A DNA stretch of 64,000 bases, from sequence record OL615012, one strand, 5' to 3'. Positions 32,662 through 33,384 of this stretch are shown piece by piece. The first letter of the stretch is position 1, and every line of letters begins with the position of its first letter. The notes under the pieces were generated by a model, which was not told the origin of the DNA, searched no databases, and saw only the letters and a list, made by a program, of their open reading frames with translations. The stretch is from Shigella phage vB_SboM_Phaginator. The translations under genes were made by a program, and so were the position numbers.

Positions 32662-32680
32662 AACTTTATGCAATCTTTGG

Positions 32681-32710
32681 AAAATAAAAAAGGACTCCCG
32701 AAGGAGTCCT
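32681..32710 (-). terminator. Rho-independent terminator downstream of 30.9-like ORF
   Basis: GGACUCC-UUCG-GGAGUCC hairpin followed on minus strand by UUUUUUAUUUU. Confidence 0.7.
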
Positions 32711-32714
32711 CAAC

Positions 32715-32891
32715 TTATGCTTTCTGCTTACCAAAACGAGAAGCATCATCTCGAAGAACCGCACGTGCTCGGCGCATGATCTTCTCAACAGTTTGATTGA
32801 TACGAGAGTTCGACCCACGCTTGTAGCCAGCGCGTTTAGAATCACCAACTTTCTTTTCAACTGCTTTCTTTGCTTTAACTTGTTTTGCCAT
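32715..32891 (-). CDS. Small basic protein (30.9 position)
   Basis: ORF track gives 72 aa from 32933 with no ribosome-binding site; internal ATG at 32891 gives 58-aa Lys/Arg-rich product (MAKQVKAKK...). Confidence 0.5.
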   Translation of the reverse strand: MAKQVKAKKAVEKKVGDSKRAGYKRGSNSRINQTVEKIMRRARAVLRDDASRFGKQKA

Positions 32892-33135
32892 TATAAATTC
32901 TCTTTTAAATGAAAATGCAGGACTTATTGGCATTGCCTGCGCAAGCCCTCAAGGGGAACATAGGTTTTTGGATATTTAACGACCAGGATAACCATAAACC
33001 CGTCATCATTCACATTCAAGAGGTACACCGTAAAACTGCCGGGGTCTTAAAACTATAATGATTCGCAAATCATTAATCAGACAGTTCGACGGCTCCTCGA
33101 TTTAGCTCACACTAAGGCAGTGAATCTCCAATAAA

Positions 33136-33384
33136 TTACTTCAATGTTACCACAAAGTGACGAACTGCTTTTCGTGCAGCAGAAGCCAGAGGCTTAGCAT
33201 ACTTAAGTTCATCTTTTTCCTGAAGCTCAGCAGCTAATGCAGTTTGAGCAGGATTCAGATGTTTGAAATAACGCAGGATTTCAAGAGCTTCGGCTTCAAC
33301 ATCAATAGATGCGCCATAGTTTTCGTGACCATTATTCCATGCGTTTCGTTGCAGTTCAAGAGCGTGTTGTAATTGTTTAATCAT
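33136..33384 (-). CDS. rIII: rIII lysis-inhibition accessory protein
   Basis: 82-aa ORF, T4 RIII length and position next to gene 31. Confidence 0.88.
   Translation of the reverse strand: MIKQLQHALELQRNAWNNGHENYGASIDVEAEALEILRYFKHLNPAQTALAAELQEKDELKYAKPLASAARKAVRHFVVTLK

Follow-up and report, generated by a model that had tools for sequence, protein, structure and literature searches.

T4 is the reference lytic phage, yet the spacer of 244 nt between its genes rIII and 30.9 (130541..130784 in RefSeq T4) carries no annotated feature, which raises the question of what this stretch of DNA contains. We addressed it in a 64,000-nt stretch of the genome of Shigella phage vB_SboM_Phaginator (OL615012; hereafter the window) that is ~99% identical to phage T4 and differs from RefSeq T4 by 1 nt within the gap. 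A previous sequence-only reading had noticed an unusually long non-coding interval upstream of 30.9, and this interval is real: among the ~70 features in the 112-150 kb region of T4 no other intergenic gap is as long, the runners-up measuring 147, 145, and 138 nt. The left border proposed at the time, 32934, presupposes a 30.9 of 72 codons, whereas RefSeq T4 uses a downstream ATG (58 aa), the sole one kept in most of the more distant relatives (L009-L025). Because 30.9 starts at this downstream ATG, the gap extends over 32892..33135 and thus 244 instead of 202 nt. On one side it is bordered by rIII, whose product shows 100% identity to T4 RIII-type proteins and matches PHROG 1457 (‘lysis inhibition; accessory protein’, E = 4.7e-44), and on the other by 30.9, which encodes a very basic, lysine- and arginine-rich protein that matches PHROG 1427 (function unknown, E = 3.5e-31) and has no match in Pfam. 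In the records examined beyond RefSeq T4, annotation of the spacer is limited to a handful of ORF calls that are not conserved and a single tag ‘ori type 2 repeat’, and a literature search retrieved no paper on it.

The gap is non-coding in practice, as none of its ORFs is conserved. The earlier statement that neither strand has an ORF of more than 35 codons needs correction, given that an ATG ORF of 49 codons is present on the plus strand (32909..33058; no Pfam or PHROG match), while the minus strand contains two of 34 codons; in close relatives, frameshifts and stops within the frame disrupt the gap ORFs. Transcription of rIII starts from early, middle, and late promoters (PMC9409239), and the first terminator after rIII in our scan is located 3' of 30.9, where it marks the end of transcripts crossing the gap; in the annotation of phage Kha5h the same terminator is listed as an early one. 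The spacer would thus be transcribed without a promoter or a protein gene of its own, and its content would be made within rIII-30.9 transcripts at all infection stages. This content is very probably a set of conserved structured RNA elements and not a promoter region (Table 1). On the gene-sense strand, a ToxI-like repeat (H0), modules A, C, and D, and a hairpin at the ribosome-binding site of 30.9 would follow each other from 5' to 3' and fold independently. The suggestion of a small structured RNA in the interval is supported and understated the case, with covariation across relatives covering a whole string of structures.

Table 1. Elements of the rIII–30.9 spacer and its surroundings (window coordinates).
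Feature	Position	Strand	Description	Basis
rIII CDS (context)	33136..33384	-	82 aa; upstream gene, transcripts read into the gap	
H0	33099..33132	-	one degenerate repeat resembling ToxI (a type III antitoxin), AUUGGAGAUUCACUGCCUUAGUGUGAGCUAAAUC	positional orthology
Module A	33020..33098	-	79-nt irregular hairpin, four nested helices	covariation, RNAalifold, MFE
Module C	32959..33009	-	H-type pseudoknot	covariance model, shuffles
Module D	32907..32956	-	hairpin region, CCCCUUGAGGG and GCAGG...CCUGC, then AUUUUCAUUU	comparative
Putative hairpin over 30.9 Shine-Dalgarno	32897..32916	-	small hairpin, AUUUUC/GAGAAU	RNAfold, T4-type sequences
30.9 CDS (context)	32715..32891	-	RefSeq T4 version of 177 nt, 58 aa	
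Intrinsic terminator 3' of 30.9 (context)	32690..32711	-	nine-pair GC-rich stem, then UUUUUAUUUU	

The structures of modules A and C are well supported. Module A consists of the helices P0 (GAGG/CCUC), P1a (GCCGU/ACGGU), P1b (AACUGUC/GGCAGUU), and P2 (UAAUGAUU-UGCG-AAUCAUUA), with an invariant G.U pair and other wobbles on the gene-sense strand, and its unpaired positions include CGAA, (C)UGAUUA, UAUAGUUUUA, UUUU, and GUGUA, conserved in most or all sequences. Across 20 distinct sequences 98.3% of the cells are paired and 12 of the 26 pairs have changed on both sides, a value equalled by none of 500 shuffles, while the paired fraction drops to 25-63% in slid controls. RNAalifold independently gives the same fold, which is also unusually stable in the single sequence (MFE -24.5 vs -14.6 +/- 3.0 kcal/mol, z = -3.33), and the only place in the window matched by a covariance model of it is 33007..33104 (119 bits). 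In module C, the loop GGUU of a first stem (S1, GACG-GG/CC-U-GGUC) pairs with a downstream AACC (S2), and the linker CGUUAAAUAUCCAAAA is conserved and A-rich. The identity of S2 differs by lineage (GUUGGUU/AACCAAC, UUGUGAG/CUCACAA, GGUAGU/ACUACU, CAAGGUU/AAUCUUG), and in T4 itself it is weak (-5.1 vs -3.6 +/- 1.8 kcal/mol). S1 and S2 together are 78.9% paired, compared to 68.6 +/- 1.5 in shuffles, with 36 cells changed on both sides vs 14.2; none of 500 shuffles matched on three measures, and slid controls reached at most 52% pairing. The covariance model of module C matches each T4-like locus once, and the window likewise contains a single match (32955..33011, 62.8 bits).

Support for module D is purely comparative, and alternative pairings exist, given a single-sequence z-score of -0.25. 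Its sequence identity is 89-98% in comparisons of T4 with relatives whose 30.9 is 71-90% identical, and in other lineages its second stem swaps identity at the same position (GGGAGC/GCUCCC, GAACUGG/CCAGUUC, GGUGGAG/CUCCAC). This part (D2, GCAGG/CCUGC with the following U-rich tail) is conserved in position and has covarying stems; it was not called as a terminator by the scan because its loop measures 14 nt. The hairpin over the Shine-Dalgarno sequence of 30.9 has different small counterparts at or near this site in other lineages (UCC/GGA or CUCC/GGAAG) and is best regarded as putative, since its predicted stability is low (-2.4 kcal/mol, z = +0.13). In T4 alone, the folding energies of C, D, and H0 are unremarkable, and the MFE of the whole gap is marginal (z = -1.79). 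Many compensatory changes are shared by clades and thus represent few independent events.

Judged by their sequences, modules A, C, and D are under stronger conservation than the flanking genes, i.e. under purifying selection: between T4 and two relatives (L015, L010) they are 89-95% identical, while rIII reaches 82-84% and 30.9 71-72%. At the same time, H0, A, B, X, C, and D vary in presence and order across 36 distinct gaps, with gain, loss, and reordering among T4-like genera. Outside this group, module A has homologues in unrelated coliphages: two Vequintavirinae (W70, A5-4) and, among Kuravirus, O18-011 with related contigs. In A5-4, modules A and C precede a tRNA-like gene, tRNA-Met, and a homologue of the T4 stable RNA rnaD, whereas W70 has only A; in O18-011, the portal gene is preceded by a non-coding gap that contains A and, 40 nt upstream of A, a C-like element (25.7 bits, E = 0.0012). 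Pattern scans for module A in viral, genome, and metagenome collections recovered T4-like and Kuravirus-like contigs; two further hits (L069, L074) were discarded as chance matches.

Rfam 15 gave no match at the gathering threshold in the window and 12 related loci, and at E <= 10 only chance or terminator-driven matches appeared (Atu_C8, Phe_leader, preQ1-II, snoZ242, MIR4221, DUF2815, TeloSII), the DUF2815 RNA scoring 14.5 bits against a threshold of 41.2. Atu_C8 and Phe_leader merely overlap the terminator hairpin after 30.9 and were dismissed. A search of the window for tRNAs and tmRNAs was negative, and there was no second copy of the gap in its 64 kb. A hammerhead ribozyme was considered for module A and rejected, as CUGAUUA occurs in place of CUGAUGA (U at the G8 position), UAUAG read from the sequence replaces GAAA after the hairpin, and Rfam gave no match. 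The T4 gap produced only chance matches in 72,556 plasmids, and modules A, B, C, and D had no detectable counterpart in these plasmids or in 5,426 E. coli genomes; they are thus not close mimics of a known host RNA. Comparable to the modules are rnaC and rnaD of T4 (species 1 and 2 RNAs), also phage-encoded structured RNAs of unknown function, but these lie in the tRNA cluster, whereas the T4 modules lie in an mRNA spacer. Searches of all gaps with rnaC and rnaD as queries (BLAST, nhmmer) detected no sequence similarity to any module, and rnaD matched nothing but the stretch that follows tRNA-Met in A5-4 and W70.

The one element with a recognizable relationship is H0. Its positional orthologue in relatives (L015; Mosigvirus ATK48, L003) is AGGTGATTCGCTACCTTAAGTGCGGCTAGAAAATCG, which agrees at ~32/36 positions with the ToxI repeats upstream of the ToxN gene on E. 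coli plasmid pU90-1, and the repeat of another relative (L026) matches the Pectobacterium-type ToxI repeat. When the pooled gaps were compared to the 5,426 E. coli genomes by BLAST, matches were confined to two short query stretches, where L015 and L026 have their ToxI-like repeats, and 137 of the 141 matching places were on plasmids, including plasmids shown with ToxI arrays; ToxI-bearing plasmids were found in E. coli, Salmonella, Klebsiella, and Yersinia. ToxI is characterized by two interleaved stems of 3-4 bp with loops of 3-4 nt, 1-2 nt, and no more than 7 nt (PMC3401426), and the loops of H0 (GAUU, U, UUAGU, read from the sequence) fit this spacing. Stems were assigned from covariation among natural repeats and not from coordinates: the putative stem 2 persists through compensatory changes (UGC/GCA -> CGC/GCG -> CAC/GUG), and stem 1 (GGA/GCC) retains two of three pairs, one pair being lost. 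T4 H0 itself agrees with a Pseudomonas-type ToxI repeat at ~25/36 columns by eye, its fold z-score is ~0, and an HMM of 10 bacterial ToxI repeats did not detect it in the window. This suggests that H0 is a decayed single ToxI-like pseudoknot repeat, with a link to ToxI that is only transitive in T4 itself. The gap of RB69 has no H0, and the resistance of that phage to toxIN was hence dropped as bearing on it.

ToxI-like elements in phages have a precedent in PhiTE, the only phage described with ToxI RNA mimicry in the literature we found. The wild type is sensitive to ToxIN, and escape mutants had extended a short ToxI-like sequence (PMC5086642); wild-type T4 remains subject to restriction by toxIN of E. 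coli (PMC10853763). The closest known system is pseudo-ToxI of this Pectobacterium phage together with ToxI, the RNA antitoxin of the type III toxin-antitoxin system ToxIN; pseudo-ToxI resembles the T4-like case in being a phage-borne, non-coding, intergenic pseudoknot unit of 36 nt. However, T4 H0 is degenerate, single instead of tandem, lacks GAAAU, and covers just 34 of the 244 nt, and while active escape phages carry expanded arrays, the T4 gap does not; throughout the related loci, as in the window, the ToxI-like repeat occurs as a single copy without a tandem array. Single repeats of this kind were seen in 161 phage records. In Certrevirus CB7, pseudo-ToxI adjoins tRNA-Tyr in a small-RNA region, and in Kuravirus XT73 a full pseudo-ToxI repeat is located in the gap before the portal gene, which corresponds to the gap with A and the C-like element in O18-011, ending in the same terminator and portal start.

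What the modules do can be approached by guilt by association, as relatives hold clear ToxI-like repeats in the same gap as the T4 modules, which suggests a link to counter-defence. The modules might act in trans as RNAs, most probably as small stable RNAs that bind to host factors or serve as decoys for them, e.g. those of RNA-dependent abortive-infection systems, in analogy to pseudo-ToxI decoying ToxN; only the last hairpins would act in cis, on the translation of 30.9. The full statement, conserved structured spacer RNAs including this trans-acting role, has in our judgement a little less than an even chance of being correct. That the modules are decoys for counter-defence in particular is a tentative and rather unlikely specification drawn from the analogy, and we are more doubtful about an ‘RNA counter-defence island’, i.e. 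a constitutively transcribed spacer slot that collects decoy RNAs in T4 and many enterobacterial phages. If such an island existed, B as well as A and C, which travel together across three unrelated phage families, would be new classes of defence-inhibiting RNA beside pseudo-ToxI, the first in T4. The ToxI-like repeats in the same slot of relatives offer a testable lead to RNA-based counter-defence in T-even phages. Even if the function proves ordinary, the motifs are new candidates for Rfam, where at least two conserved structured RNA motifs common to rV5-like and phiEco32-like coliphages are absent, and they explain why the spacer is more conserved than its neighbouring genes.

A cis-acting leader or 3'-UTR, whose elements control translation of 30.9 or stabilise or process the rIII-30.9 message, is somewhat unlikely as the explanation of the whole gap. 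The modules do adjoin 30.9 directly upstream in nearly all T4-like loci, an arrangement also compatible with such a leader, a small hairpin holds the Shine-Dalgarno sequence across all lineages, and the hairpin and U-rich tail of D2 are conserved just upstream of the ribosome-binding site. The leader of T4 gene 32 contains a pseudoknot operator, and module C likewise lies in one of the few long leaders of its genome region. By this analogy an operator for the 30.9 protein, small, rich in lysine and arginine, and without known function, is conceivable if on balance improbable, and the same holds for RNase E or RegB sites, with two GGAG motifs (the RegB consensus) present at gap positions 7 and 40. 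However, A and C also occur without 30.9, before tRNA genes in Vequintavirinae and before the portal gene in Kuravirus, and among T4-like phages 30.9 remains constant while the order and presence of modules vary freely, down to a gap of only 120 nt (L023) that keeps C and has lost A. The GGAG in module A also stays unchanged beyond the T4-like phages, and helix P0 includes the first two G's of this motif.

That the elements are evolutionary debris or recombination cassettes, i.e. remnants of mobile elements or shuffling motifs of the PeSL type without an RNA function of their own, is very unlikely. The gap certainly is a hotspot for insertion, deletion, and exchange, H0 of T4 looks decayed, and horizontal transfer between phage families is evident, but debris would not be expected to exceed the flanking genes in conservation as A, C, and D do, nor to keep its pairing through compensatory changes. 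The PeSL cassettes of T4-type phages are, like the modules, short intergenic motifs tied to modular shuffling, and they consist of an early promoter and a stem-loop (PMC2839356, PMC4122927). By that description a PeSL needs an early promoter, which the gap does not have, and the modules are larger and composed of multiple helices.

The sequence-only reading had also proposed early or middle promoters in the gap for 30.9 and the genes downstream, which is highly improbable: promoters are often found in long gaps of T4 early regions, but the sigma-70 consensus scan found no site in this one (the nearest are within rIII and downstream of 30.9) and called no canonical terminator, the sense strand has no TGCTT MotA box, TATAAATA late promoter, or GTTTAC early -35, and the conserved positions covary as RNA helices. 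The best candidate is a weak sigma-70-like pair (TTGAAT-17-TATGGT, gap positions 117-145, 8/12 matches), whose halves are pushed apart in relatives by insertions of 50 to 150 nt, and an older T4 record (X54536) puts its promoters before gene 31 and after 30.9, with none in the gap. A pistol-related self-cleaving ribozyme, formed by module C alone or with its neighbours and processing the transcript between rIII and 30.9, has hardly any probability, for although phage association is frequent for pistol RNAs (PMC4604425), the hairpin P1 with a loop that forms a downstream pseudoknot is present in module C (weak in T4), and the sequence after P1 (CGUUAAAUA) is identical to that of the env25 pistol ribozyme (CGUGGUUAGGGCCACGUUAAAUAG..., PMC7373991), neither P2 and P3 nor the G-U cleavage junction can be drawn after the pseudoknot, L026 has a ToxI-like repeat directly at this place, and the Rfam pistol model does not match the 256 nt searched even at E <= 10. 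A different comparison can be made with the CptI-type type III antitoxin, an H-type pseudoknot with a long A-rich loop (PMC5086642): module C is not tandemly repeated and no sequence match to a bacterial array was found, but it has the same H-type topology and an A-rich connecting loop.

The spacer between rIII and 30.9 is non-coding, and the ORF-free interval of 200 bp described there by the sequence-only reading is real but slightly misdrawn. The 901 bases around it match T4-type phages at 99% or more, both genes are placed here on the minus strand in RefSeq T4, Kha5h and X54536, and the gap differs from RefSeq T4 by one base. Its left border had been put at 32934 because of a longer, 72-codon form of 30.9 that some records annotate; most of the more distant relatives lack this form and keep only the downstream ATG, which gives the gap the borders listed in the table. 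Annotation of the 30.9 start (window 32892-32933) is inconsistent, with 72 aa in Kha5h and X54536 and 58-59 aa in RefSeq T4 and RB69. The unusual length was rightly noted: among about 70 annotated T4 features from 112 to 150 kb no intergenic gap is longer, the next ones measuring 147, 145 and 138 nt. The claim that no ORF exceeds 35 codons was inexact, as a 49-codon ORF runs on the plus strand at 32909..33058, besides two of 34 codons on the minus strand. The plus-strand ORF has no match in Pfam or PHROGs, and close relatives keep none of the gap ORFs intact, every reading frame there being disrupted by stops and single-base indels. The ORFs that several GenBank records place in the gap (window 32909-33058 plus, and nearby), under names such as 'hypothetical protein' and '1,4-alpha-glucan branching enzyme, GH-13-type', are probably spurious since the gap ORFs are not conserved. 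In the ATK48 record, an 'ori type 2 repeat' of 10 bases (locus positions 1010-1019) is annotated where the gap adjoins 30.9; we found no evidence of a replication origin at this site, and T4 annotation puts oriF at uvsY.

Features of the rIII-30.9 region in window coordinates
Feature	Coordinates	Strand	Description
rIII	33136..33384	minus	
30.9	32715..32891	minus	58-aa RefSeq form
gap rIII-30.9	32892..33135		244 nt
module A	33020..33098	minus	four nested helices P0, P1a, P1b, P2
module C	32959..33009	minus	hairpin, loop pairs ~20 nt downstream across conserved linker CGUUAAAUAUCCAAAA

Early or middle promoters had been suggested as the content of this interval, and they are not supported: a consensus scan found no sigma-70 promoter (and no intrinsic terminator) inside the gap, a motif search of its sense strand found no MotA box core TGCTT, late TATAAATA or early GTTTAC, the halves of one weak -35/-10 pair (8/12 matches) are separated by insertions in relatives, and the promoters annotated in T4 are elsewhere, one side being upstream of gene 31 and the other downstream of 30.9. 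The other suggestion, a small structured RNA, was right, and the gap is richer than expected, holding a chain of modules. It contains no tRNA, and no Rfam family was found at gathering thresholds or at E <= 10. Membership in Atu_C8 (31.4 bits) or Phe_leader, considered for window 32676-32759 (minus), was rejected, the matches being sub-threshold and due to the GC-rich hairpin of the terminator that follows 30.9.

Forty loci fetched from IMG/VR via RIII gave 36 distinct rIII-30.9 gaps, which were aligned; all but one measure 120-416 nt. Read 5' to 3' along the minus strand, T4 has H0, A, C and D followed by the 30.9 ribosome-binding site, and the gap is modular across lineages: H0 is missing in RB69 and A in some lineages, others carry the 136-nt module B or the ~50-nt hairpin X between A and C, and the group of locus L026 places C ahead of a ToxI-like unit and B. 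Between T4 and the related loci L015 and L010, identity is 94-95% in A, 89-91% in C and 89-94% in D, whereas the flanking genes reach 82-84% (rIII) and 71-72% (30.9); judged from these alignments, the non-coding modules are under stronger constraint than the adjoining genes.

The structure of A is well supported. Over 20 distinct sequences, 98.3% of cells are paired and both partners have changed in 12 of 26 pairs, many of these compensatory changes being common to the Kuravirus clade and thus counting as few events; separate compensatory events within T4-likes are G-C to A-U at pair 15-84 and C-G to U-A at 27-72. None of 500 shuffles matched the observed pairing, both-side-changed cell count or covariation score, and pairing was 25-63% once the 3' partners were slid as a control. 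RNAalifold predicts the identical fold unaided, and T4 A alone folds to exactly the comparative structure (-24.5 kcal/mol, z = -3.33). The gene-sense strand is the one that carries an invariant G.U pair and several further wobbles, which assigns the structure to the RNA or to the corresponding DNA strand. The structure of C is likewise well supported: covariation is strong at the outer pairs of S1 (both sides altered in 9 and 8 sequences), and S2 keeps its place with lineage-specific identity (GGUU/AACC, GUUGGUU/AACCAAC, UUGUGAG/CUCACAA, GGUAGU/ACUACU, CAAGGUU/AAUCUUG). Although five rows are one column off register in the MAFFT alignment, the combined structure is better than 500/500 shuffles on three measures and than all slid controls. 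T4's own S2, with four pairs and two past a bulge, is no better than shuffles (43/200), so that the pseudoknot in the window is predicted from homology.

H0 is likely of ToxI ancestry, as a degenerate ToxI-like repeat. The L026 group gap contains GGTGATTTGCTACCAAAGTGCAGCTAGAAAT, and L015 and ATK48 have AGGTGATTCGCTACCTT(A)AGTGCGGCTAGAAAATCG directly 3' of the rIII stop; the published ToxI repeat is AGGTGATTTGCTACCTTTAAGTGCAGCTAGAAATTC (PMC8610362; primer in PMC5772629). ToxI arrays precede ToxN genes on 75 plasmids of E. coli, Salmonella, Klebsiella, Yersinia and others, and the pU90-1 variant, TAGGTGATTCGCTACCTTAAGTGCGAGACGAAAATC, is identical to L015 at about 32/36 positions. Seven pooled gaps (window, L015, L026, L022, L029, L018, L021; 1,848 nt) matched 5,426 complete E. 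coli genomes by BLAST only at query 244-288 and up to 656, which are the L015 and L026 ToxI-like repeats. Of the 141 matched places 137 are on plasmids, several of them found to carry ToxI arrays. H0 of T4 is the positional orthologue of the L015/ATK48 repeat and keeps its loop spacing, with stem 2 retained through compensatory change (UGC/GCA in ToxI, CGC/GCG in L015 and pU90-1, CAC/GUG in T4). It has lost one stem-1 pair, reads UAAAU in place of GAAAU, is 72% identical to L015 against 94% for adjacent A, and went undetected by an HMM of bacterial ToxI repeats; hence we call it degenerate, its homology to ToxI being purely transitive. That H0 is no effective antitoxin accords with the literature: E. 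coli toxIN restricts wild-type T4, whose route of escape is the protein TifA (PMC10853763), and wild-type PhiTE is ToxIN-sensitive, its escape mutants having lengthened a short ToxI-like sequence to a suppressing pseudo-ToxI (PMC5086642). PhiTE is the sole phage named for ToxI mimicry in the accessible literature. In all, 161 phage records of several families have single ToxI-like repeats, among them T4-likes, Kuraviruses (XT73, L090:694-740), Salmonella phage 7-11, ~110 kb Klebsiella phages, Vibrio and Salinivibrio phages, and also Pectobacterium phage CB7 (L091:1601-1658).

ToxI/pseudo-ToxI is the closest known relative of any part of the gap, and for H0 only. C resembles the P1-pseudoknot half of the pistol ribozyme down to the linker CGUUAAAUA (PMC7373991), but lacks P2, P3 and the G-U junction and is not matched by the pistol covariance model; A holds CUGAUUA, which differs from the hammerhead core at a single base, but has neither G8 nor the GAAA element. 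A PeSL cassette requires an early promoter, absent from the gap, and rnaC and rnaD have no homology to any module. We class the finding with phage intergenic structured and decoy RNAs, any function of its modules being a proposal. The finding matters because these motifs, absent from Rfam, lie in T4 itself.

We favour trans-acting RNAs, from association rather than proof, in part because A and C occur apart from 30.9, in stable-RNA gene clusters or non-coding gaps of other phage families. BLAST and pattern scans placed A in the Vequintavirinae W70 and A5-4, ahead of a tRNA-like sequence, tRNA-Met and an rnaD homologue, and in Kuravirus O18-011 (in a 470-nt non-coding gap that precedes the portal gene) and related metagenome contigs; its covariance model detects a single copy in each genome segment and no further copy in the window. 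With the model of C, every T4-like locus gives a single hit, A5-4 gives one immediately following A, and O18-011 gives a weaker match 40 nt upstream of A (25.7 bits, E = 0.0012). The two modules thus co-occur in three unrelated phage families, in either order. The modules also behave as independent cargo in one slot. XT73 has a complete pseudo-ToxI repeat in the gap ahead of its portal gene, where the corresponding O18-011 gap, ending in the same terminator and portal start, has A and a C-like element instead, and Certrevirus CB7 carries one beside tRNA-Tyr in a small-RNA region. Moreover, the slot would be transcribed throughout infection, given that early, middle and late promoters all drive rIII (PMC9409239) and the next terminator downstream lies after 30.9. 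For A, B and C as possible decoys, the plasmid collection and the 5,426 E. coli genomes yielded no bacterial counterpart.

A cis-regulatory role for 30.9 is a serious rival, and the last hairpins of the gap probably have one. Across lineages the D2 stem recurs at one position in varying sequence, with a U-rich run after it; D allows alternative pairings, and its T4 sequence alone is not thermodynamically unusual. The 30.9 Shine-Dalgarno lies within a small hairpin (AUUUUC/GAGAAU) in T4-type sequences, and other lineages have a different one at or near the site (UCC/GGA or CUCC/GGAAG). D and this hairpin are most simply read as a cis element for 30.9.

Further RNA elements were seen in relatives. 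Between module C and tRNA-Met, A5-4 (L064:1675-1760) and W70 (equivalent in L044) carry a tRNA-like sequence, GCGCGGGTGTATCTCAACGG ... TTCGAGTCC ... CCCGCGCTA, uncalled by ARAGORN. Directly 3' of tRNA-Met, these rV5-like phages have a homologue of rnaD (species 2 RNA; L064:1851-1947 and equivalent in L044; nhmmer E = 1e-11), downstream of A and C in A5-4. Module X, an extra hairpin between A and C in RB69-like gaps (L092:300-355 minus in RB69; also L004, L009-L012, L015, L021) and absent from T4, reads GCGUCAGA-AAAAGGUUA-UCUGUC, with CAGA/UCUG changed to CAGC/GCUG in L021. Module B, absent from the window and without an Rfam match, is a structured RNA of ~136 nt in the rIII-30.9 gap (L026:1860-1995; also L013, L016, L020, L022, L024-L032, L038), present once per genome and mostly 90-100% identical in 407 records of T4-like phages of Klebsiella, Escherichia, Enterobacter and others. 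RNAalifold shows compensatory change in 13 of its 40 pairs, and an apparent kissing loop covaries (CGAUGG/CCAUCG versus CUAUGG/CCAUAG).
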